From Schmidtea nova (Eukaryota): DNA of 64,000 nucleotides. The position numbers were made by a program, and so were the translations under genes. Shown here in pieces: positions 143 to 22,533 of the stretch (positions are counted from its first letter, which is position 1; each line of letters begins with the position of its first letter). The notes beneath the pieces were generated by a model. That model ran no database searches, was not told the origin of the DNA, and worked only from the letters and a program-made list of their open reading frames with translations. Where the stretch lies: assembly GCA_044892505.1 (NCBI GenBank), contig CM097884.1, forward strand, positions 72,230,001-72,294,000, given 5' to 3'.

Positions 143-604
143 TCATGGGCCTCGTGTAACATTGTGATTTTCTCTTTTATTTGGTCTATTCCTTTGATCT
201 GATTTAGACATACTTCCCTTTTTAACTCTCACATTTGAGCATTTTATTAAGAGTTTCTCCTTCAGATCTTCTTTAGTCCAATCTCGTTCAAAGACTTTAT
301 CCACGATCTTGTCTACTATCTCGAAGTACCTTTCGGGTTCTTCGTTTGTCTGCTTGTATACCAGTGCTGCTTTGATATCTTGTAATACTGTTGTTTCCGT
401 TTTAAATGCCGTCCTCATTCTCTCTTTGTAGCATTTGATCTTTGGGTCGATGCTTTTATATTTATTTCTGAGGTCATCATTTAATAGAGAAGTTACTATT
501 ATTTCTTGTTTGACACCTGTAAATTTCGCAAACTGAAAAAACGTTTCGCATTCTCCAATAAATTTGTCAACATCATCTCCTTTTCTGAACTTTGTCGGTA
601 TCAA
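143..604 (-). mobile_element. Gypsy-type Gag (capsid-like) remnant running towards the left window edge
   Basis: ORF IPTKFRKGDDVDKFIGECETFF... resembles the N-terminus of an LTR-retrotransposon Gag. A TGTAATGAG-started LTR-like segment lies upstream (about 630-910). The 5' part is duplicated at 20280-20387. Confidence 0.55.
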
Positions 605-916
605 TTGTGAAAGAAAGAATTATGAAGACGTAGTTGCCCGGTTACCCGCAACGAAGCTGTCGGTCGTATCATAAGTTTTCTTTTAATTCAATTTTATTTA
701 ACTATAATGAATTGTTTAATTATTTAAATTTTCTTCACTTTCAGTTATTATTTAAACAAACCTTTTTAATCCAATCATCAAAATAAAATTTCAATAAATT
801 TCATTTAATTTTTTCAAAATAGAAATTTAAATTTCCGAATAGCTATTTTAATCAATGGACTGCATGTCACAATAACCTTTAGATTTTAAGCTTTAGAATT
901 ACTCATTACAGTAGTT

Positions 917-985
<69 letters not shown>

Positions 986-2384
986 ATATATATATATATA
1001 TTATCCACTCCTGCTACTCGTGATAATATTTCTGCTAAAGATTCCTCCTTCATTAAATTCGGTTTATCAATTTTTATCTTTTTTTACACTTTGAGTTTCA
1101 ATTGGATTGTAGTTTATAGTCTTATTTATAAGTATGTCATGAGATTTCAAATGATTAATCAATGCAGATTTTGTGGATCCTTTACATCCCATACTTCGAC
1201 CACATTTATTACACATGGCAACTGGTGACTGGTCTTCTTTCCGTAAAAAATAAGTCCATACATATGATCATTTCGACATGGCTAGCTAAACAAAATAATA
1301 ACTTATAACTTTTAAGTACAAAAATTCAATACTTTGAATTCAATACTTTTGTATTAAAGTAACTGTAAATAGGATAATAAATCCGTATAAACTAATTATT
1401 ACGGCAAATGTTTTTTTTCAAAAATGTAAGATTCATGATTTATAACTTGCATAACTCTAACTCTCCGTGGAGATACAGACGAGTCAGTATTCTCTTGATA
1501 AATGACAAAATTTTAGATATGTTTATATTACTTCATATCTCACACAACCCACGTGCAATTTTTTTTCCAATATTTTGTATATAGCTTCTTGTTTATCGGC
1601 TCAAGTATTTGTGAAAGCTAAATTATAAAGAATAATAGAAATCCGATTCCATCGTTGACATAACAATGTGTTATAAGTGCTTTTTGTCATAAAATCATAA
1701 AGATAAGCAGAAGACTTAAAAATGGCAGCATTAAAAAATAAGCTTGTCTCTAATTAGCAAAATAAACATACTAATTCAATGTAAAATTTTTTGGCATTTA
1801 ATAGCCGTAATTATTTATTTAATGTTTTATTTTAATTTATATATTTAATATATATTTTGGTTACATTATGAATATTACATAATTAATAAATAATTAAATA
1901 AGCTTTTGGTGATAAATTTTATTAGGTGAAAATTTTAGATTATAAAAAAATTCTTATAAATGAAATTATTAATAATTCAAAAATAAAATAAAATTTATCA
2001 AATTAAACAAATTATTTTAAATTAGAAATTAATACTCAAATTTACACTAAATAATATTAAAATTAGAAAAATATTAAAAATCTTATAATATAAATATGAG
2101 AGAATACTTTACGAATACTTTTTAAAGTATTAGAATAACGAATACTTAAAACCAGGCGAATATATATAAAGTTCGAATATTCGGATTGGAGGCTTTACTA
2201 ACCATGCTTACTTTTTTACACAATTCTTTGAGTAAATAACTAACATCATACACACACACACCAAAAATATTAAAGTTTAAATTTGTATCGGCATCAACTA
2301 AAACATGTTTAAAAAATAATAAGTAGCAAAAAATAATAATAATAATATGAAAATCAAGTAGTTGTAGACAAAAACACAAAAGAA
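497..2384. repeat. Copy 1 of an inverted segmental duplication (partner 17866-20387)
   Basis: Near-identical reverse-complement match. The ORF track shows the same peptides on opposite strands (980+ vs 19187-, 2146- vs 17673+, 143- vs 20280+). Confidence 0.95.
920..1000. repeat. (TA)n microsatellite
   Basis: Direct sequence, with one TGTG interruption. Confidence 0.98.
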
Positions 2385-3162
2385 AATAATCAAAGAATTT
2401 AAAAGAGTAAAATTTATTAAAACTTCAAAAATACAAGATGGAGACTGAAATTCATTATGGTGCTCTAAAATAATCAATTAATTGAAAAAAAGAAATATTT
2501 TAAAATGAAACAAAGACTAATTAAGAAAACGAATAAAGTGAGAAAAAAATGAAATCAATTTATTTGTTTAAATAGAATGAAAACTGTTGGGTTATTTTAT
2601 TTAAACACTAGATAGGTTCAAACTCTTACTCACCGTGTCCTTACGTACTATGAGTCGGACTATTGACTTAAATATCGTCTTTTTAGATCACCTGAAAAAA
2701 TAGTGAGCAGGAACTCTTAATATTAACACATAATGACCCTTATCCATACTGATGTGAAGGTTGTACTGATCGAGTGAAGAATCAAAATATGTGGATTTAA
2801 GAAAGGAGATATTCAAAAATATCATTTTTCAACCATTGTCTAAATAAATAATAAATATTTCATTCCCATTTGTGTTTGTATTCATTGATTTGTAATTAAT
2901 TATTTTATTAGTTTTTGCTTATTGTAAAATAAGTCGCATGCAATACAAATGCAATACTCGTGTATAACCTATGCATAACATGAATAATATACTGACATAT
3001 ATCTGGTAATGCTTCCACTTTAGCGCTGTTTGGTTATAGCGCTCTTTTAATTTGATGAAAAAATATTTTCCAATTAAAATATGTATTTTAATCCGTTATT
3101 ATTTTATTTCCTAATAAAAATTTTATTATATCTTTATTATTATAGTTAAATATGTAAATTAA

Positions 3163-3913
3163 CCGCTTAATACACAGTTCCGTGACATACGGGCAACGCT
3201 TACTTGCAGAATTGGACAGCTCCGTGAACGTCACGGTCGTAGCAATTTTATATGTATTAAAATATTAAAGCTCCGTATAAGTCACGGTTTATATTGAAAT
3301 ATTACTGTCCAAATATTTCAACTATAATAACACCATGGGAGGCGTCGATAGATTAGATCAACATTTACATGATTACCAGATACCTAAAAAACGGCGGAAA
3401 AAATATTACAAAAAAATATTTATGCATTTGTTTGATTTTGTCATTTTTAACTCTTTTGTTCTGTACAAAACGAATGGTGGAACGATGGACAATTTGGAGT
3501 TTAGAACAAAATTGATTGAAGAAATGATTGAAAAATATCACTCAAGCACAAACATCAAAAAGGCAGGACGACAAAGACTTATGGGAGCATTACGACTAAC
3601 GGAAAGACATTTTCCGGATTTTATTCCTCCGACCGAAAAAAGGCTGTACCTTACAAAAATTATGCGGTATGTTGCACAAGAAAAGACAGCACGGGCAAAA
3701 AAATTAGAAAATAGACAAGGTATTGGTGCGCTGATTGCAACGTTGGACTCTGCGTAGTCACTTGTTTTAAAACTTATCATACGCAATTAAAATATTAAAA
3801 AAATATATTTTTTCTTTTATATGTGAGATAAAATAGGCATAAATAATAATTATTTGTAAAAAAATTAAATGTTTTTTTAACCTAAATTAATAAAATAAAT
3901 GTGCATTAAGGGG
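3163..3913 (+). mobile_element. Internally deleted piggyBac element carrying the transposase C-terminus (ORF 3335-3757)
   Basis: TTAA at 3159-3162 and 3914-3917. 13-bp TIRs CCGCTTAATACAC / GTGCATTAAGGGG (11/13 match). ORF has MGGVD(R)LDQ and the ..KKIFMHLFDFVIFNSFVLY motif typical of piggyBac DDD transposases. Confidence 0.88.
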
Positions 3914-5477: not shown

Positions 5478-5793
5478 AAAAATAATAGTCATAAAAAATA
5501 GAATAGTAATAATACTTATGAAAATAATAGTAAAATATAATATTAAATAAAATAATAATAAAAAAATAAATAAATAATAAAACTTTTTTTTTAAAAATGG
5601 CGGACACTTCTTTCAAAATTTAATTTTAAATATAACGCTTAAAATTTATTTATTTACTTTGGTTAATGATAATTGGCTTATATAACAAAAAATTATATAC
5701 TCAAAAGACACTAATATTTACTTCCTTATTAATTTATAAGGAAATTGAATTCAGCCAAATAATTTACGTAATCTGCCATATATATATATTCAC

Positions 5794-7094
5794 ATGGAAA
5801 TCATTATTTTGTCATTCCAATTCACAATGAATAAAGATAAGAAGCCAACTTTGACCGAATTTGCTAGCGGATTATATAAATCGAATAATATCTTTTCAAA
5901 ATCAACAATTTTTGATTTTGCCGAACGACTGAATAGCCGCTATACGATATTTTTCTTATCAATTGCCATCGCAGTCGTTGCACCAAACAATTATATCGAT
6001 ACAAGAATAACTTGCTTTTCAATAACGACTCCCAATCAAAAAGCCTCATTTAATGAACTGTTCGAAAGTTACTGTTACACAAACGGAACAATTGTTCTAC
6101 TACCGGAAGACAAAACTCCAAGTACAAACACTGAATGGAATGAAATGAATAATCAACGGAAAATAAGTAAGTAAAATTTACTAATTTTTTCAAAGTATTA
6201 TTATTATTATTATTTCTTTTTCTAGATTATTATCAATGGTTTCCGTTGATTTTACTTTTTCAACTCGCTCTATTCAAATTGCCTAGTAGAATTTGGAATT
6301 ATTTCTCATTCGTTCAATCAAACTGCAATTTTGATAAATTAATTGAAAACGCTAACCAAATTAAACAAAAAACCGCTTTGTCTGATTATAGAAAATCCAT
6401 AAATAATATTGCCATGGAGATTGATCAAATAATTCACGATTCAAAAAATCGATTAAGTCAGGCTAATTGGTTTTCCCAATTCAAGAAACGCGTTTCAAGC
6501 ATTTTCTCATTGTCTAGTAGAAAATTATGTTTGCTTTACGCATTAGTGAAAATCTTATTTGCTGTCAACGTCATTGGTCAAATAATTGTCATGTCTATTT
6601 TAATGTTCAATTCTAATTTGTTTCCATCATTTCCATTCTTTAACCGACCTGGCGAAGTGGATTTGATTTTCCCAAGGAATGTCATGTGTCATTTAGCAGA
6701 CATTATCGGAACTCGGGACACGAATAGTTATACAGGTCAGTGTATTCTCCATTTGAATATGTTCAATCAATTTGTATACATCCTCATTCATTATTGGTTC
6801 TTGATCCTATCAATGATCCAATTGTTGTCGATTCCCTACTTTATTCAAAAAACATTTACATTCAGATCACAATTCGATTTGATTAAACATTTGTTAAGAA
6901 TATCAAAATCCTACAGCAAGGACGATAAAAGAATTGTTAAAGATTTCACCAGACTTCATCTCGGTTGCGATGGAATATTTGTAATAAGAAAATTGAATGA
7001 CAATGTCAACCATTGGATAGCCAGTGATATTGTGACTGTAATGTTCAATAATTACAGAAATGCGATTATTTCAATTACATTAGAAAATTCATAA
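5794..7094 (+). CDS. inx: Innexin (gap-junction protein), 2 exons: 5794-6166 and 6226-7094, about 413 aa (alternative ATG at 5827)
   Basis: A 59-bp GTAAGT...CTAAT...TAG intron joins RKI-N-YYQWFP in frame. Innexin motifs: DFAERLN..YT, two EL1 Cys (ITCF, SYCY), YYQWxP, FKLPSRIW, FPRNVMC, QCILHLNMFN. Confidence 0.95.
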
Positions 7095-11211: not shown

Positions 11212-11649
11212 TTATTTGATCAATTGGTTTTCAGATATCCAAGTGGGTTTTCATATTCATGTCATTGAACATAGTATTGTTTATATTTGCCAAACATTGT
11301 GATTTTTAAATCTTTTGAATTCTGAAAACTGATGGGGATGGAATAACTTGTAACTCTTGTTCATAGAATTTCCCACTGATTTCATTATTTTCAGAATCGG
11401 TAATAAAATACATGACTGGGTTCTGATTTGTATTGATTTTCGAGATTTGATAAACTTCATCACTCCAATTATTGTCAAAATTCTTGATAAAGGGGGATCC
11501 ATTGATTTTACTGATTTTAACATGATCAGCGATCTTGAATTTTGAAATTTTCTTTATTGATTTTTTTTGTTCAGATAACCAACTATTTATATTATTTGTA
11601 GAATAAATATCAATGGGTCGCTTTCCATGTATTCCTTTATGTGGAGAAT
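11212..11649 (-). pseudogene. Polinton integrase, 3' part with a C-terminal chromodomain-like tail
   Basis: Hand translation: SPHKGIHGKRP...KFKIADHVKISK...FIKNFDNNWSDEVYQI...GKFYEQELQ...FRIQKI*KS...YYVQ*HEYE/KPTWISENQLIK*. Two stops and a frameshift. Confidence 0.85.
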
Positions 11650-11787
11650 TGTTGGAACATTAATTAATTATTCAACACAATTATTTTAAAAACAATATTT
11701 TAAACAATTTGATTTGTTTAAATATGATGTGTTAGAGAAAATAAAAACTTTTAAATTAAACAGCGTGCTTCTTTTATGAATCTTATA
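11650..11787 (+). repeat. 5' LTR (138 bp, TG...TA)
   Basis: Identical by eye to 15679-15816. Contains AATAAA and the gag ATG at 11776. Confidence 0.97.
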
Positions 11788-12711
11788 AATGGTGTCAGCA
11801 ACTCCCAAGTTGACCATGTTTCGGTCAAAATTCCAGCAATTTTTCAGAACCAGAGTCTGTGGTTCAAACAAGTGGAGGCTAGTTTCAAGATATCAAGAAT
11901 TACAGAAGAAACTACAAAATATTTTTATTTAATTTCAAATCTTCCAACAACAATGCTATCAAAATACGAACATCTATTGGACTCAGAAACCGAGCTTCCG
12001 TACTCAACTCTGAAAGAAGCAATCCTAGCAGAATTTGAGCTATCAAGAAAAATATCGATAACAGAATTGATGAGAGAAGAAAGCCTTGGAGATCGATCTC
12101 CATCAGAAGCACTTCAGCACATTACGGGGCAAATACAAAGAATAGATACAGCCATGGATCCATTCAACAGTCCTATATCTCGGGAATTGTTCATGCGACT
12201 ATTACCAAGCTCTGTTCAGGACATCCTATTATCGATGCCAACGACGGACCTTCAAAAATTAGCAGTCACAGCAGACAGAATAATGTTATCAAAGCGGCAA
12301 TCAGTAAAGACAGTTGAACACGAAAATTGCAATACTCAAGAGTTAGGAGATAAGACGAGAACAATTATGGAACTACAGGAAGAAATCAATGTAATACGTC
12401 AACAATTGAGGAATAAAAGCACCAGTAAGTTATGTTTTTATCATAGTAAATTTGGGCATAGGGCGAGGAAATGTCAGCCGCCATGTGATTGGAATGCAAA
12501 TCAGAACGACAACTATCGATCAGAAAAATACATCAGAGAGAAATATCAAAATCTTGAACCCTCAAACATATCCTCAATGAACAACAACAATTTCAACAAC
12601 AACAACAAATTCAACAACAACAACCAATTCAACAACAACAACAAATTCAACAACAACAACACTTTTAACAACAACAGAGAGAACCAGGGAAACGAGAGAA
12701 GGTTTCATTGA
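11776..12711 (+). CDS. gag: Gag (311 aa) with a C-terminal CFYH...C..PC knuckle and Asn-rich repeats
   Basis: VSVKIPAIF...LWFKQVEASF N-terminal motif and CFYHSKFGHRARKCQPPC. Confidence 0.92.
   Translation: MNLINGVSNSQVDHVSVKIPAIFQNQSLWFKQVEASFKISRITEETTKYFYLISNLPTTMLSKYEHLLDSETELPYSTLKEAILAEFELSRKISITELMREESLGDRSPSEALQHITGQIQRIDTAMDPFNSPISRELFMRLLPSSVQDILLSMPTTDLQKLAVTADRIMLSKRQSVKTVEHENCNTQELGDKTRTIMELQEEINVIRQQLRNKSTSKLCFYHSKFGHRARKCQPPCDWNANQNDNYRSEKYIREKYQNLEPSNISSMNNNNFNNNNKFNNNNQFNNNNKFNNNNTFNNNRENQGNERRFH
11790..11798 (+). promoter_or_regulatory. Primer binding site TGGTGTCAG (tRNA-Leu-like)
   Basis: Lies 2 nt after the LTR. Complementary to the ...CUGACACCA 3' end I recall for eukaryotic tRNA-Leu(CAA/CAG). 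Confidence 0.75.
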
Positions 12712-12754
12712 ACCCGAACAGTGAAACCTACAAAATCATATCCTCTTTCTCGGG
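12687..12754 (+). promoter_or_regulatory. Programmed -1 ribosomal frameshift signal (slippery heptamer plus predicted H-type pseudoknot)
   Basis: G GGA AAC in the gag frame at 12687-12693, then a 6-nt spacer. Stem 1 pairs 12700-12710 with 12719-12729. Loop CCCGA (12713-12717) is complementary to TCGGG (12750-12754). pol is in the -1 frame. Confidence 0.8.
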
Positions 12755-15668
12755 ACAAAGCAACTCACAAATATTCGAAATACCAGCAATCATAAATGGA
12801 GAACAAGTTAATTTTCTCATAGATACAGGCGCTGATCTCAGTATCCTTCCCGCAAACCGTTTCAAGCCTGATAGAAATGGAGAACATCGATCTTTAGTAT
12901 CCGCCAACAATTCATCAATCACATACCACGGGCAGAAAACAATTGAATTTACTATTGAAGGATTCAGAACTAAATTTATATGGTCTTTTGCTATAGCCGG
13001 CATATCTCGTCCAATCTTGGGTGCAGATTTCCTGGCCCGTCACAAAATCGATGTTAGTTGTTATTCCAGATCAATATGTTGCCCTAGCAGTAACGAAAGG
13101 GCAGAAGCGCGGAAAAGACTATGCGATAAGATTTGTGCTACAATCAACAATCAAACTACATTAACCACGAAACTACAAATTATCACCAACGGTTCCCCTG
13201 TAGCCCAAAGACAAAGACCACTTTTTGGAGAAAAATTAGTTGCAACAAAGAAAGAATTTGACAGACTCTTAAATGAAGGTGTAATTCGGGCAAGCAAGAG
13301 TGACTGGGCATCTCCATTAGTAGTAATTAAGAAGCCGGATGGGTCATGGCGGCCTTGTGGAGACTACAGAATGTTAAATGAAATAACCCAGCCTGACAGA
13401 TATCCACTTCCGAGGATTCAAGACTTACTGAACAAGATCAACAACCCTCATATATTCACTAAGTTAGATCTGGAAAAGGCATATCATCAAATTCCGATTT
13501 GTGACGAAGACATTTCAAAGACAGCAGTCATAACACCGTTTAGATTGTTCGAATATACAAAGATGCCTTTTGGACTTAGAAACGCCTCTTAAACGTTTCA
13601 GAGACACATGGACAACGTACTCCGAGAACATCAAGAACATTCCTTATCCTATATTGATGATGTTTTGATATTCTCCAAGACTGAAGCAGAGCATAAAGCA
13701 CACGTGTCGAGTGTGATGGCCAGTCTTCAAGCAGCTGGTCTCATAGTCAACCAGAGCAAATGCGAATTCCAAACCGAAAAGGTAAATTTTTTGGGTTTCG
13801 AATTAACAAAACAGGGAATCAAACCATCGAAGGAACGCACCTTAGCAATTAGCAATTTAAAGAAGCCAACCAATAGTCAAGATTTACGACGTTTTATTGG
13901 TGGCATCGGCTATTATCACTGGCTAATTCCAAGACTGTCAGATACACTGAGTCCACTGCATGACTTGTTACAAAAATCGGCCGATAAAAAGGAAGATCTC
14001 TTATGGCAAGACTGCCATACACAGGCCTTCATGAATGCCAAAAATTCCGTACGCGAAATCAGCAACGTCTCATACCCTAACCCATCCAAGCCATTCCTAT
14101 TATGCACTGACGCATCGTCTAAAGCAATTGGAGCAAGTCTAAGTCAAATCAACGAAGAAAATAAATCATTTCCTATTGCCTTCTTTTCCAGGAAATTAAA
14201 TTTAACCGAACAGAAATATTCTACTTTCGACAGGGAGTTATTGGCAATATTCTTATCTATAAAACATTTTAAGCATTTCTTAGACGGTTCTCATTTTACA
14301 GTCATGACGGACCACAAACCTTTACTACGAGCTAGACATATGAAAGATCCATCGCCAAGACAATGGCGAATAATCGAATACCTTGATCAATTTGATTTCA
14401 CCATCGAATTCATAAAAGGGGAAGACAATGTAGTTGCCGATCTCTTGTCCAGACAATGCAGTAATCAAGACCTACAAGTATCAACTGTGGAGATTAATTT
14501 CGTTGAATTCACTAAAGAAAGTTTAAAAGAAGAACAAAGGAAAGATCAGACCTTATCTACACTGAAAAATGCAAGTCTTCAGTTATGTAGTACTATAGAT
14601 GACATCCTCATTGACAACTCTACGGGGGAGACCAGAATAGTACTGCCAAAAATATTCCGATATCAAGAATTTCTAAGAATTCATAACATATCTCATCCAG
14701 CATCCAAACCAACGATAGAATTGATCAAAGCGAGATATGTGTGGCCACAGATGAAAAGTGACATCAGAGAGTGGTGTAGACAATGTCAAAGATGTCAAGG
14801 TGCAAAGGTAACAAGACACACACATGCTCCGTTAGGTACCATAGAAACCAAAGGAAGGTTTATCACAGTTCATCTAGATATAGTGGGTCCTCTGCCGAGC
14901 GTCAACAACAAAAGATATATCATGACTATGATAGACCGAGGAACGTCATGGGTTGAAGCAATTCCTATATATGATATCACAACAGATATGATAGTAAGAA
15001 CGTTTGAAAGAGAGTGGATCAGTCGTTTTGGTGTTCCAGAAATTGTTATAACAGATCAAGGAGCACAGTTTGAATCAGAAAAATTCTCCAATTTCTGTAA
15101 GGTAATGGGAATCGAAAGGAAGCGAACAACAGCATATCACCCTCAATCCAATGGGAAGATAGAAAGATGGCACAGAGCCATGAAAAACTCGATAAGAGCA
15201 GCATCAGAAAACTCATCCAAGACGTGGGCCCATGATCTCCCCAAGATTCTACTCAGTTTAAGAAACTGCACGAAGTCTAATGCGTCTCCATCGGCAGCGC
15301 AACTCACATTTGGTTGTCGAGCCAGATTACCCGGAGATTTTGTTATTAGTGAACCAATATTAACCAATATCGAAGACAATTTAGCATCGATTCAAGAGGA
15401 AATCGACTCACAACTAAGTAACAAAAAAACAAGCCAACCAAAACAATATAGTTTTGTAAGCAAACTATTTGTTAATTGCAAAAAAGTGTGGCTTCGAGCT
15501 GAATTTAGGAAGTCATTAGAAGATCCGTACACTGGACCATACGACGTTATAGAAAGATCCGATGACAATAAAACGTTAAAAATCAAAATTGGAGACCAAA
15601 TAAAGAATGTTAGCATCGACCGTCTTAAGCCATGGATTGGAGCTGATGAATTTGCTCCGCAATCTTAA
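12687..15668 (+). CDS. pol: Pol (protease, RT, RNase H, integrase) with one in-frame TAA at 13590-13592
   Basis: LIDTGAD; DLEKAYHQI, MPFGLRNA, YIDD; TDAS, RELLAI, TDHKPL, ADLLSR; HHCC, DIVG / TDQG / NGKIERWH; GPY motif. Confidence 0.95.
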
Positions 15669-15675
15669 GGGGGAG
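15667..15675 (+). promoter_or_regulatory. Polypurine tract AAGGGGGAG
   Basis: Overlaps the pol stop codon and ends 3 nt before the 3' LTR. Confidence 0.85.
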
Positions 15676-15678
15676 TTG

Positions 15679-15816
15679 TGTTGGAACATTAATTAATTAT
15701 TCAACACAATTATTTTAAAAACAATATTTTAAACAATTTGATTTGTTTAAATATGATGTGTTAGAGAAAATAAAAACTTTTAAATTAAACAGCGTGCTTC
15801 TTTTATGAATCTTATA
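15679..15816 (+). repeat. 3' LTR (138 bp)
   Basis: Identical to the 5' LTR and followed by the TSD AGAAT. Confidence 0.97.
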
Positions 15817-16470
15817 AGAATAATTATAACTATAAATCAATTTAGCCAAAACATTTATCCAAGATTTTTTTTCTTTTCAAAACAAAGTATTTTTAAATTT
15901 ATCATTCAGAGTCCGATTGAATCTTTCAACAACAACTGCCTTAAATTGCGAAAATACTTAGTAATGATTAATACCATTGATAATTTTTTTAACTTTATCA
16001 TTATAAAATTCTTTACCTAGAATAAAATTTAAATTAAATTAAAATCTTACCCAAATCAGTTTGTAAATTTCGAGGTTGTCCATCTGCAAATAAAGTTTTT
16101 ATAGCTTCAGCCATTTAATTTGCAGATTTAGTTTTTATTTGGAATTGTATGTGCATAGCGACTAAACACATCAATACAGGTCAAAATATATTTGTATTCA
16201 TTATTTATTTTAGAAAAAGGTATCATTTCCATTAAATCCATTTGCAATAAATCATCAACACCAATTGTTTTATAACTACGTGTATGAAATCTTTTCAACA
16301 TTGGTTTATTTAAACTATATGCCAATTGATCAGATAACCATTTTTGAGTATCTTTCTTTGAATTACTTACTCTTTTTAAAATTTTGTTTCCCGCAGCAAA
16401 CCCATTGGGATCTTTTAGGCTTGTCCAAATCTTTTTCAATTGATTTTTGGTTACCTTTTTGATTAATATT
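15817..16470 (-). pseudogene. Polinton integrase, 5' part (rve core)
   Basis: KWLSDQLAYSLNKP...LQMDLMEM...YKYILTCIDVFSRYA...LQTDLGK...VVERFNRTL. The frame continues across the Gypsy TSD as YSYNY|SPHKG. Confidence 0.9.
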
Positions 16471-16471
16471 T

Positions 16472-17230
16472 ACTTGGAAAAGAATGACAATGGCAATTAC
16501 CAATCCAAATTTAGTGGCACCCATGCTAATATCAAAAAATGGTGTATTCGCTAAAATCTTTTGAGAAGCATTATAAAGTAACAAGTGCAAAGAAACTACA
16601 GTGAAAATTGAGAATTATGAGAAATGTACAAATGAATTACCAGTAAGTGTTGGCAGGAAATTACTATTCATGGAACCGATAGCTTGAATAATTCTGAAGA
16701 ACAAGTCAACCGAAAACTTTACAATGTAGTCGTTTATTAGCTCCATTATATCGTCTAGTACAAAATTCATGGGTAGCATATCCAGGTTATCGATGAGTTA
16801 AAGCTCCAGATAAATTGGAATTAATAAATTCAGAGTACTTGGTAAATTTCACATCGATGAATAAAATGGCACAAATTTGTTATTTCCATCGAAAAAGGAA
16901 CTTGTGATTTTGGAAATGATTGATATGATTTTGCCAAATGGAGAAGGAAAGGTTAATTGCGAATATTTCTTTACACCTGACTACTTTAAACGAGCTACGT
17001 ATAAAACGATGGAAAAGATTTGGGGTAAATTTATGATTTTAGGAAAAACATGTCCAGATTTAATTGACATGTAATTGCAGTAACAATAAAGGTAATAATA
17101 TCACAAACATTGCATGCTCATAGAATATATGAAATTTCCTGATGGTCATTGAAAAATGATTATTGGTTTTATTCCATTTTGGCTAGATTCTTCATTACAA
17201 ATCATCAATACAAAGAAATGGGAAGTGAAA
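16472..17230 (+). pseudogene. Decayed chuvirus-like / gB-like class III viral glycoprotein (C-terminal half)
   Basis: Hand translation: MAITNPNLVAPML..GVFAKIF*EAL*SNKCKETTVKIENYEKCTNELPVSVGRKLLFMEPIA*IIL...CSRLLAPLYRL..W...LFPSKK...EKIWGKFMILG...LHAHRIYEIS*WSL. Motif order and spacing match the chuviral G consensus as I recall it. Confidence 0.75.
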
Positions 17231-17564
17231 GAGGACAATTGAAAAATGATCAAAAAAGTGAAGAATCACTATGCGATTACGAGGATAAAAATAATGACCA
17301 TAACAATAATAGCAATAGTGGAAGATCAGAACAGAAATCGTTTCGAAGAGGCATAAAAAAGTAGAAAAGAACCCGAATCCAGATTCTTGCTTGAACTAAT
17401 GCCAAAACATAACTGAAATCGATACTTTTTCTAAATGGTACACACTGAAATTTATGCCAACATCTTCTCTATATCTAAGTGAGAAGTTGAGAGAAATGAA
17501 ACCAGTTGATGAGATCAAAGTCGAATTAGAAAAGATTGAACCATGAAGCGCAGAAATTGAAAGA

Positions 17565-17830
17565 AATAATGTGCTTGGTTTGCCATGTAATTATGCATTT
17601 ATCACAATAGAGTTGGGAGGAAAATAGCCTCGAATATACATACAATTTAATAAAGGAAAAATTGAAGCGTTATTGGGTTCAGGCTCAAGTCACAGCATAG
17701 TATCGAAGAATTTCTTGACGAGACAAGAAAAAAAAGCCAACAATGAAAATTATTCAATGACGCATAATGTATTGAATATCGTTGGAAAAATAGAAGTTAA
17801 ACTGAAAATAGGAAATCAGGAAGTAACTCA
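17565..17830 (+). pseudogene. Gag zinc-knuckle and retropepsin remnant
   Basis: CLVCHVIMHLSQ*S fits CX2CX4HX4(C, mutated). It is followed by KIEALLGSGSSHSIVSKNFL, a DSG motif mutated to GSG. Confidence 0.55.
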
Positions 17831-18373
17831 TTGGGTATCGCGTATGAGAAAAAGCCTGTCAAATATTCTTTTGTGTTTTTGTCTACAACTACTTGATTTT
17901 CATATTATTATTATTATTTTTTGCTACTTATTATTTTTTAAACATGTTTTAGTTGATGCCGATACAAATTTAAACTTTAATATTTTTGGTGTGTGTGTAT
18001 GATGTTAGTTATTTACTCAAAGAATTGTGTAAAAAAGTAAGCATGGTTAGTAAAGCCTCCAATCCGAATATTCGAACTTTATATATATTCGCCTGGTTTT
18101 AAGTATTCGTTATTCTAATACTTTAAAAAGTATTCGTAAAGTATTCTCTCATATTTATATTATAAGATTTTTAATATTTTTCTAATTTTAATATTATTTA
18201 GTGTAAATTTGAGTATTAATTTCTAATTTAAAATAATTTGTTTAATTTGATAAATTTTATTTTATTTTTGAATTATTAATAATTTCATTTATAAGAATTT
18301 TTTTATAATCTAAAATTTTCATCTAATAAAATTTATCACCAAAAGCTTATTTAATTATTTATTAATTATTTAA

Positions 18374-18534
18374 TATCATAATTATCTTTTTTCACCTTTG
18401 ATCTTTTTTTATTATTATTATCAATAATTCTCATAATGACTATAGATCAAAATTTTTTTTTATAAACAATAACACTTATTGTTTATAAAAAAAAATTTTG
18501 ATCTATAGTCATTATGAGAATTATTGATAATAAT
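18374..18534. mobile_element. Foldback family copy with collapsed centre, inserted relative to duplication copy 1
   Basis: Palindrome ...GACTATAGATCAAAA...TTTTGATCTATAGTC... flanked by direct repeats AATTATTTAA(TAT) at 18364 and 18535. Only a single copy of this motif exists at the empty site 1872-1884. Confidence 0.85.
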
Positions 18535-19413
18535 AATTATTTAATATTCATAATTTAACCAAAATATATATTAAATATATAAATTAAAATAAAACATTAT
18601 AAAAATTACGGCTATTAAATGCCAAAAAATTTTACAATGAATTAGTATGTTTATTTTGCTAATTAGAGACAAGCTTATTTTTTAATGCTGCCATTTTTAA
18701 GTCTTCTGCTTATCTTTATGATTTTATGACAAAAAGCACTTATAACACATTGTTATGTCAACGATGGAATCGGATTTCTATTATTCTTTATAATTTAGCT
18801 TTCACAAATACTTGAGCCGATAAACAAGAAGCTATATACAAAATATTGGGAAAAGAATTGCACGTGGGTTGTGTGAGATATGAAGTAATATAAACATATC
18901 TAAAATTTTGTCATTTATCAAGAGAATACTGACTCGTCTGTATCTCCACGGAGAGTTAGAGTTATGCAAGTTATAAATCATGAATCTTACATTTTTGGAA
19001 AAAACATTTGCCGTAATAATTAGTTTATACGGATTTATTATCCTATTTACAGTTACTTTAATACAAAAGTATTGAATTCAAAGTATTGAATTTTTGTACT
19101 TAAAAGTTATAAGTTATTATTTTGTTTAGCTAGCCATGTCGAAATGATCATATGTATGGACTTATTTTTTACGGAAAGAAGACCAGTCACCAGTTGCCAT
19201 GTGTAATAAATGTGGTCGAAGTATGGGATGTAAAGGATCCACAAAATCTGCATTGATTAATCATTTGAAATCTCATGACATACTTATAAATAAGACTATA
19301 AACTACAATCCAATTGAAACTCAAAGTGTAAAAAAAGATAAAAATTGATAAACCGAATTTAATGAAGGAGGAATCTTTAGCAGAAATATTATCACGAGTA
19401 GCAGGAGTGGATA

Positions 19414-19476
<63 letters not shown>
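19414..19476. repeat. (TA)n microsatellite
   Basis: Direct sequence. Confidence 0.97.
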
Positions 19477-19478
<2 letters not shown>

Positions 19479-19744
19479 AGTAAGTGTGGACGGGGGAACA
19501 AAGACATATGACGTCATCGCGTGTGTGCATCCAATCAAAATCAAGTGACCCCCCCCCCGCCCCGGGGGGTACTTTTTTTTTTTTTGCGAAACGATGAGTC
19601 ATCAAAAAAAAATATTTTTTTTTCCAAAATTTTTAAAAATTCAAATTTTTTTTTAAAAAATTTCAAAATTTTCAAAAACTTTTAAATTTTCAAAATATAT
19701 ATATATATAAAAAAAATATGTTTCCCCTCGTCCACACTTCCTCC
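19477..19744. mobile_element. MITE-like element with about 25-bp TIRs and TA flanks
   Basis: GGAGTAAGTGTGGACGGGGGAACA (19477-19500) versus TGTTTCCCCTCGTCCACACTTCCTCC (19719-19744), with TA on both sides. Confidence 0.75.
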
Positions 19745-22533
19745 TACTCTCCCGTTTTTTCTCACGTACTTTTCGACATTTTATATGGATCTGATCAGGT
19801 TTTCAGTGTAACAATGTATAGGCAGAATTTAATTTTCTACAAGATGGCTTTATTCAAAATTTAAATTGTTGCGTATTGTGTTGTGCACACGTGTTTTAAA
19901 TTAAATTTGTATATTTCACCTAGATAAAGTAACTTTATTGAATTTTTGTTGTGAATTTTTTTATGTCAACTACTGTAATGAGTAATTCTAAAGCTTAAAA
20001 TCTAAAGGTTATTGTGACATGCAGTCCATTGATTAAAATAGCTATTCGGAAATTTAAATTTCTATTTTGAAAAAATTAAATGAAATTTATTGAAATTTTA
20101 TTTTGATGATTGGATTAAAAAGGTTTGTTTAAATAATAACTGAAAGTGAAGAAAATTTAAATAATTAAACAATTCATTATAGTTAAATAAAATTGAATTA
20201 AAAGAAAACTTATGATACGACCGACAGCTTCGTTGCGGGTAACCGGGCAACTACGTCTTCATAATTCTTTCTTGCACAATTGATACCGACAAAGTTCAGA
20301 AAAGGAGATGATGTTGACAAATTTATTGGAGAATGCGAAACGTTTTTTCAGTTTGCGAATTTTACAGGTGTCAAACAAGAAATAATATTCCAGTTTCGTT
20401 TGCTCATTTGTTATTGGTTTTTCTTTAGTTTTTGTTTTCAACTGCAAGAATTTTTAGAAGTTTTTCATATTGCTTGCAAAGTACTAGCTAAGAAACTGAA
20501 TTCAGAGCGATTTTGTTTGGTAGGTAATCTGATGACCACACGATTTGTGACATATCTCAGTAATAACCCTATGGGTATTATAAATTTAAAAAAATCAAAT
20601 CTGAAAATTATAAAGGTTCTCTTCATAAATTCTTTCAAAATTAATGGTATAACGGAGAATAGTTTGGTTTTTTAATTTTTTTTAATCTTACTCAATATTC
20701 AAAAGGTTGCCGTGATTATTTATACACCTCTTCCATCGCACAGGAAACATTTCAAGTTCTGTATAGAATACTTCAGTTTTCTTCATTAAATATTTTATAT
20801 CATTTTCACGTAGAATCATTCACTTTTATTCCCTTCATCTACTGTAAAGCAGTTTCATAGATAAAATTCATATTTACATACAAACGAGCACAATAAACTT
20901 TTAAAACCTCTCAGAACTAACAAAGTTCTTTTACTAAACAAATGTTTTTAAAACAAATTTCTTTTGTTTTTACAAGAAATTGAATATTATCCGCCATATA
21001 ACGAAGAATTATAACGAAACACCGCAGCTTTTCTACTTTTATTACAAATTTGTTTTTATCTATATATTTACCATTTTGTATAAAGAACCTGACCGATAGT
21101 ATAGAGAGGTTATAATGTACATACTTATTTGCATATTTGTTGATAATAAGTCCTTAAATACAACCACATATTATAAACTTCCTTAATTTTTATTATTTTT
21201 AATAATTAAGAGCCAATTAAAAACCTAATATAAATTTACTGGAAATAAGATTTCGGAGTCTGTAGGTACCCCGTCTTACTTTATACTTCCCGGTTCAACT
21301 TATTGCATAACTCCAGGATATTGCGGATATAAGGAATACTAACCGAATTATATCATAATGGCATTAATTCTATTCATTATATCTTGGAAATTGTGGATAC
21401 CTTATTATATTCTAGAATACAAAGATCTTCACGGGCACAAAAGAAATTCCTATGGGTTCGTAAGGGGTGGGGAGATTGAAAAATGTAACGAGGAGAGGAA
21501 GTTTTATCAAATATAATGTCACATATTTATTTAGTTTATTCGTAAAAAATCTTTCCGATTTCGCCATTGAAGAATAAAAATTAATATTAATATAAAATAT
21601 ATAAGGAATAATAATGTGGCAACAAATAATCAATTTTCTTCTATTATTGTTATTGCTAAAGACAACATTAAAAGTATTTGTCATTGATTATTTAATCTAT
21701 TATTTGTTGAAAATGTAAGTGTAATATGCATTTTTCAGTTCTAAACAGAATAAAAGAACAATATAATAACTACTCTTAACTACAGAATGGACAAAATGAA
21801 TGTTTTCAGTAGTCATTTGAAATATTTATTATAAAAATATGACGTCACAATGGTGACGGGTGTTGAGAAAATTCAGGACAAAATAAAATTTGGCCGTGCT
21901 TGAAATACAAAATAAAACTTGAAATTTCAATGATGACAATAAAATATTATAATGGAATTTCTGAAATCTACCGAATCAGCATAATCAAAGCCATGTAAAA
22001 TGGAAAAAACTAGTTTTGATTTGGAAGATTTCTTGGGATATTCAAAATAATTTTTCGAAAATAAATAGAAATTTTTTATTTAATAATAATTATTATAATA
22101 AATCTTAGTTAAAATGATTTTTTAACTTATTTTTATTGTAAAAAAATCCCAAAACATGTTAAAAAATCATAATTTCCTAGAAATTATTTAAAAATTAAAT
22201 AAAAATAGAATTGTAGACCAAAGATAATCTTTCAAAGCTTCTATAGTGATCTCATATTAAAATAAAGATAAAAGCTTTAAAATATATCTTTATAAATAAA
22301 ATTACCTGATAGCCATTTTAAAAGTGGTTAAATAATCTTTCACTGTGTATTCGAAAAATATTTATTTTTTCATCTTGAATTTAAATTTTTTGTTAAATAT
22401 TAAAAAAAATGTTGATCGATAGTCTGAAAAGAAATAGAGAAAAAAGAAATTGAAAATGACAATAGAAAATATATTTTTTGCAGTGTTGCAATTTATTATT
22501 CGATATGTGATTGTTTTTCAATTATGACTTCAG

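Follow-up and report, generated by a model that had tools for sequence, protein, structure and literature searches.

A decayed env-protease fragment in Schmidtea nova and the gB-type enveloped Ty3/gypsy family from which it very probably derives

Positions 16471-17864 of the window (the whole stretch of 64,000 bases of Schmidtea nova DNA that was analysed) are very probably a dead internal fragment of a Ty3/gypsy LTR retrotransposon, of a family that encodes Gag, Env and Pol as one polyprotein; the assignment of the element itself to this enveloped gag-env-pol family is firmer still and can be regarded as nearly certain. The window copy encodes nothing and matters little in itself. The family itself is well preserved and has been spreading recently, an example of the gB-type enveloped retrotransposons in a planarian, an animal group with stem cells and RNAi.

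The window fragment and its decay

With an unbroken 17-kb copy of the element as blastn query, 16471-17864 is the single match in the window, and slightly exceeds the 16472-17830 delimited by an earlier, sequence-only reading of this DNA. LTR, gag, reverse transcriptase (RT) and integrase of the env-bearing element are absent from the 64-kb window, and the fragment likewise has no primer site, polypurine tract or target duplication. The parts of the fragment are as follows.

16471..17864, + strand: whole remnant, polyprotein residues ~1443-1927 (blastn against the unbroken copy, 83.3% over 1,460 columns)
16471..17047, + strand: C-terminal ~200 residues of the Env ectodomain, with stops and frameshifts (PF24664; tblastn, residues 1447-1656)
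17048..17100, + strand: Env transmembrane helix (residues 1651-1669), interrupted by a frameshift (hydropathy scan and alignment)
17101..17622, + strand: membrane-proximal region and Env-protease linker (alignment), containing an off-frame pseudo-knuckle at 17572-17598
17623..17864, + strand: N-terminal ~80 residues of the aspartic protease, with ALLGSGS at 17667-17687 and without the catalytic Asp

Six-frame translation shows a cysteine-patterned region at 16472-17200, broken by stops and frameshifts, and ALLGSGS at 17667. Read in the + frame of 16472 with X at stops, the fragment exceeds the curated cut-off of Pfam PF24664 (Monjiviricetes_fusion, E 4e-12), and its Env part aligns with residues 1443-1738 of an unbroken genomic copy, which bears out the glycoprotein half with a transmembrane region that the sequence-only reading had proposed. 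The protease remnant of that reading likewise holds, as ALLGSGS falls in the aspartic-protease domain of the unbroken copy; the protease frame alone gives a weak gag-asp_proteas match (E 0.077). Furthermore, the alignment to an unbroken LTR copy is continuous, in keeping with the earlier description of the region as the remnant of an env-bearing LTR element. Relative to the compared copy (G000:C3:70153019-70170059, 17,041 bases), the decay that had been noted comprises 8 stops in frame and 13 indels, and 176 of 1,392 aligned bases are substituted. Since the substitutions number 46, 46 and 83 at the three codon positions, the pattern would fit a history in which the copy first diverged to some extent under selection and then decayed neutrally for a long time.

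Anatomy of the unbroken copies

A DNA search of the genome (1.25 Gb; GC 29%) with 16472-17860 found, apart from the window itself, 41 matches distributed over 39 places (best 40 of 1,015 candidates); 31 of these places cover nearly all 1,389 bases at 83-84% identity. In a PF24664 search of the genome, 29 of the 68 scored places (best 68 of 3,412) lie, as counted by eye, in unbroken frames of at least 3,380 aa. As the best candidates were scored, both searches favour long, linked copies, and solo env pieces may exist beside them. The family is young and abundant, with many unbroken copies.

Elements of the family measure 15.7-17.3 kb, with LTRs of 0.8-0.9 kb and an ORF1 of 3,393-3,402 aa, and form three subfamilies whose ORF1 products are 74-82% identical. 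The compared copy has 811-base LTRs (99.9% identical) with TG...CA ends and a polypurine tract. Clean LTR pairs were found in five of the eight regions examined (99.6-100% identical); of these five, four show clear 4-bp target duplications and the fifth lies in an AT microsatellite. A complement to the primer site is present at the 3' end of a tRNA-Trp(CCA) gene in the same genome. The tRNA-Trp(CCA) gene matching this site lies in a tandem array with a period of ~282 bases (G000:C3:128,022,754-128,069,411; L069-L072); the 21-base pattern used here has 1,984 exact matches, every one on the + strand, and each of the first 100 matches listed lies within this array.

ORF1 of the compared copy is one polyprotein of 3,402 codons, arranged as follows.

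Residues 99-178: Retrotrans_gag (Pfam)
Residues 289-424: four CCHC knuckles
Near residues 965-1050: Bcl-2-like domain
Residues 1088-1106: hydrophobic helix, putative signal
Residues 1089-1738: Env (PF24664, E 7e-86)
Residues 1651-1669: Env transmembrane helix
Residues 1848-1941: protease
After the protease: RT, then RNase H, then integrase (Pfam)
Residues 3007-3025: hydrophobic stretch, putative second signal
Residues 3355-3373: transmembrane helix of the C-terminal protein

The order protease-RT-RNase H-integrase in the unbroken copy is that of Ty3/gypsy elements (Metaviridae), and the TG...CA LTRs, tRNA primer site, polypurine tract and short target duplications agree with the same group. 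The best RT match is Ty3 RT (E 1.5e-85), followed by an 'enzymatic polyprotein' (E 6e-54) and by retroviral RTs at E 1e-27 or weaker; this comparison was made against the PDB, which has few retrotransposon RTs. Membership of BEL/Pao was considered and rejected, as neither a Pao peptidase nor a DUF5641-type match was obtained in Pfam and gypsy-type RNase H models matched instead; the element is Ty3/gypsy, not BEL/Pao, the group of the mosquito elements that the sequence-only reading had cited. The Bcl-2-like domain matches Pfam Bcl-2 under the curated cut-off (E 3e-4 and 7e-4) and Bax at E 0.004, ranked behind two designed helical-repeat proteins; the top three Atlas matches are Bcl-2-like (0.85-0.90). 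Ubiquitin-like and dUTPase-like motifs, which characterise Burro, were suggestive by eye here and had no Pfam or PDB match. Apart from ORF1, an ORF2 of 515 codons (L017:4549-6093) is kept in all three subfamilies, being shorter in some copies, and has a weak RNase_T match of the DEDD exonuclease type (E 1.4e-4, under the cut-off).

The envelope protein: relatives, fold and selection

A search of 1.84 billion representative sequences with Env gave 1,444 matches at E 0.001. The best relatives are polyproteins with Env before the protease (37-44% identity), and many stand-alone glycoproteins of ~650 aa match at 22-28%. A sequence search of the PDB with Env returned nothing significant, and the likeness to herpesvirus gB emerged from the fold search only. 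The AlphaFold model (110-sequence alignment, pLDDT 91) matches herpesvirus gB in all 36 PDB rows among the Foldseek matches listed (best E 1e-13), with whole-model TM-scores of only 0.39-0.48, and its best match in a viral library is a chu-related G (E 2e-36, TM 0.76). The predicted fold of Env is that of a gB-like, class III fusogen, and the profile and fold matches together uphold the chuvirus-G-like, class III character assigned to env by the sequence-only reading. Identity is ~16-25% to the G of Chuviridae/Jingchuvirales and 10% to gB, with which Env has PF24664 and the fold in common. Unlike both of these, Env here belongs to a retroelement polyprotein, and the examined elements carry neither a nucleoprotein gene nor an RNA polymerase gene.

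Between subfamilies, the dN/dS of the ectodomain is 0.033 and 0.057; the Gag capsid, protease and RT lie near these values (0.016-0.08), and the Bcl-2-like domain stands at 0.44 (one usable pair). All these values are rough because synonymous distances are near saturation. By these comparisons, Env is under strong purifying selection between subfamilies. Such selection shows that env is useful to the element, and by itself is compatible with more than one manner of use; the strength of the constraint argues for env being needed in spread.

Among distant env-bearing polyproteins, six (P0012, P0013, P0014, P0015, P0018 and P0023) have at least two aspartic-protease domains after Env. Another env-bearing Ty3/gypsy polyprotein, P0016 (HBK71150.1), is labelled as a protein of a Flavobacteriaceae MAG and is likely to be animal DNA in a bacterial bin.

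A putative route of spread

It is rather probable that the unbroken copies spread from cell to cell as enveloped particles. The steps proposed here draw on the predicted topology and on what is established about class III fusogens and about how Ty3/gypsy elements replicate. The element RNA would be translated into one polyprotein chain threaded through the ER membrane, in which the helix at 1088-1106 may serve as an internal signal sequence, with signal peptidase freeing the N-terminus of Env on the lumenal side. Transfer would halt at the helix of 1651-1669, so that protease, RT, RNase H and integrase stay cytoplasmic, attached to the tail of Env until Pol is released by the protease. Gag, presumably held at the same membrane via the Bcl-2-like domain and the signal helix, would gather round the RNA and leave by budding together with Env, whose trimers would bring about fusion with an adjacent cell. 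tRNA-Trp would prime reverse transcription, and integration would make the 4-bp target duplications. The second signal, after the integrase, would yield a further type I membrane protein. A single polyprotein would imply equal amounts of Gag, Env and Pol unless splicing or other control intervenes.

The strongest competitor, which is nonetheless judged somewhat improbable, is that Env is kept for an intracellular job (membrane anchoring of assembly, a superinfection block or fusion of neighbouring cells) and that no infectious particle leaves the cell. It gains from the fusion of Env to Gag and Pol at equal amounts, a departure from retroviruses, and from the account of the flatworm elements by Chary and Hayashi (2026; PMC13524379), in which the transmission route of such elements is called unknown. 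Nevertheless, the whole ectodomain, its cysteines and the transmembrane helix are under strong constraint, which fits a working fusogen best, and spread as enveloped particles remains the preferred reading.

A predicted second membrane protein after the integrase

The protein that follows the integrase is predicted to be of type I, with a signal near residue 3007, an ectodomain of ~310 aa carrying 7-9 N-glycosylation sites, and a transmembrane helix near 3355. All three subfamilies retain it in frame, with 59-61% identity, and the dN/dS of its ectodomain (0.18) indicates weaker constraint than on Env. A hydrophobic signal, a long tail and a later hydrophobic helix also occur past the integrase in the distant env-bearing polyproteins P0014, P0016 and P0024, most clearly in P0016; a profile of the post-integrase protein had no significant match to these three tails. 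Homologues were likewise not found among proteins of 218-700 aa, in the PDB or in Pfam. Its structural model, from a six-sequence alignment, reaches a pLDDT of 35. Atlas matches, all below 0.9, lead towards fibronectin type III (FN3), with the ten best named matches all in one family or clan, and an FN3 motif pattern, loosened after the sequences had been seen, fits five of the six sequences; the ectodomain possibly contains fibronectin type III repeats.

No description of a post-integrase membrane protein was found in the full-text literature, a scope that excludes the original Burro description (Grohme et al., 2018) and Repbase, and fibronectin, Bcl, exonuclease and polyprotein go unmentioned in the main text, as distinct from the figures and external sequence files, of PMC13524379. 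The protein may thus be a new feature. It is a concrete candidate for the attachment partner of a gB-type fusogen. Herpesvirus gB is triggered by gD/gH-gL. How gB-only elements enter cells without the partner glycoproteins of herpesviruses is left open in the text of PMC13524379. By analogy, and with considerable doubt, the elements could be pictured as two-glycoprotein endogenous viruses, in which the second protein would bind a receptor and trigger the gB-fold fusogen while the Bcl-2-like domain would keep the producing cell alive.

Relation to known systems

The enveloped gag-env-pol layout is already published for planarians and other flatworms, and the family is a further member of this group; hence, apart from the predicted post-integrase membrane protein, the locus is ordinary. 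As described by Chary and Hayashi (2026; PMC13524379), GAG-ENV-POL elements with a gB-type env occur in flatworms, nematodes and bryozoans, and Schmidtea mediterranea has six errantivirus families, one of which (Smed_errantivirus_1) has 45 intact copies. Ty3/gypsy pol, gB-type env, the GAG-ENV-POL order and many intact copies are shared between the present family and Smed_errantivirus_1 and its flatworm relatives (PMC13524379). Env lies between gag and pol in the family, and its gB-like ectodomain is flanked by signal and transmembrane helices, both being features of the gB-type errantiviruses. Over Env domains I-II, Smed_errantivirus_1 and the compared copy agree in 197 of 251 residues (~78%) without gaps, as counted by eye (PMC13524379), and because of this high identity the family's Env is suggested to have cysteine bridges of type C1a, as in the Smed elements. 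The differences are those of genome (a 774-Mb assembly in PMC13524379 against 1.25 Gb here) and of the parts described: for the six Smed elements the published account reports no LTR or primer site, while the present family has LTRs, a tRNA-Trp primer site and 4-bp duplications.

Burro/GYPSM1 of Schmidtea mediterranea shares with the family a single polyprotein with an N-terminal Gag, CCHC knuckles, a BCL2-like domain and, in frame between BCL2 and protease, an env that matches mononegavirus fusion proteins (Arkhipova and Yushenova, 2019; PMC6431247). However, Burro exceeds 30 kb with an ORF1 of 4,873 aa, against 15.7-17.3 kb and ~3,400 aa here, and has MATH/TRAF, BIR and ankyrin motifs, for which neither ORF1 nor ORF2 of the family has a Pfam match at E 0.05; furthermore, its env has been likened to gypsy Env, whereas the Env fold of the family is predicted to be gB-like (PMC6431247 for Burro). 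Control of Burro by piRNA is known in planarians (PMC8532177).

A chuviral glycoprotein inside an LTR element is also a feature of certain mosquito BEL/Pao elements. Such elements reportedly go by the name of Anakin. They share with the family the same Pfam glycoprotein family, but have a BEL/Pao pol and an insect host (Dezordi, 2020; PMC7642597, as cited in PMC13524379), in contrast to the Ty3/gypsy pol and the env in frame between gag and pol found here. The sequence-only reading was right in considering the host not to be insect-like.

Junctions and neighbours of the fragment

Unrelated mobile elements are densely packed in the window, and the fragment is bounded by two neighbours that are not part of it.

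15818..16475, - strand: integrase remnant of an abundant Polinton-like repeat, left neighbour (rve, E 0.0045, weak)
17863..20387, strand not assigned: inverted near-identical duplicate of window 497-2387, right neighbour (self-match 98.5-99.5%)

At 16250-16475 the left repeat is 92% identical to many copies; its Polinton label was assigned by eye from the gene array. The edge of the right duplicate cuts the protease of the fragment. Each junction was searched for, and neither was seen again at the 39 other places scored in its search; the simplest account would be that both ends of the window copy were lost through local rearrangement. Capture and carriage of the fragment by the Polinton-like element is highly improbable: the fragment does abut the Polinton-like integrase, with an overlap of ~5 bases, but no match at the 39 other scored places runs across this junction, and the fragment itself is riddled with stops and frameshifts.

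The duplicate shared by 497-2387 and 17863-20387 holds a BED-finger-like remnant and a gag piece (labels by eye). At 11650-15817, a young Ty3/gypsy element that lacks env, whose two 139-base LTRs are identical and whose pol has a single stop, is inserted in the Polinton-like integrase and separates it into halves at 11306-11659 and 15818-16475 (- strand). This adjacent element was considered as the owner of env and rejected, its RT being 37% identical and on a separate branch. The window also contains an innexin gene at 5749-7094 (PF00876, E 7e-38), with a short intron probably separating its two adjoining open frames, and, at 24487-25326 on the - strand, an intronless protein kinase frame of 279 aa (Pkinase, E 6.5e-24).

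Linkage and gene order

The ectodomain is joined to the protease in 38 of the 39 other places (best 40 of 1,015 candidates), and a Bcl-2-like domain upstream and a protease downstream accompany PF24664 in 20 of 20 fetched loci, which supports the constant linkage of env with pol that the sequence-only reading had in view. A stand-alone chuvirus glycoprotein insertion lying beside the protease by chance, for which the crowding of the window and the chuviral G proteins as nearest named structural relatives might speak, retains almost no probability given these loci, the single continuous alignment across env, linker and protease, and the closer sequence kinship to retroelement polyproteins than to stand-alone glycoproteins.

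The same negligible standing applies to an env-gag-pro layout, with env upstream of a Gag knuckle, as the sequence-only reading had it from a CX2CX4H-like string between transmembrane helix and protease, and as has a parallel in the ENV-GAG-POL elements described from two mites (PMC13524379). The string (CLVCHVIMH, 17572-17598) is one base off the frame of the element and lacks the last Cys; its frame has no Pfam match, and in the unbroken copy the corresponding off-frame reading yields no knuckle and is broken by stops. The true CCHC knuckles lie ~3 kb upstream of the part held by the window. As Gag precedes Env in the polyprotein of the unbroken copies, in the same frame as env and pol, the order is gag-env-pol.

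Near the best-matching decayed copy, at L065:846-3258 (- strand), two open frames were noted by eye, one zinc-finger-like with Cys/His and one gag-like, which are possibly part of a Burro-type element.
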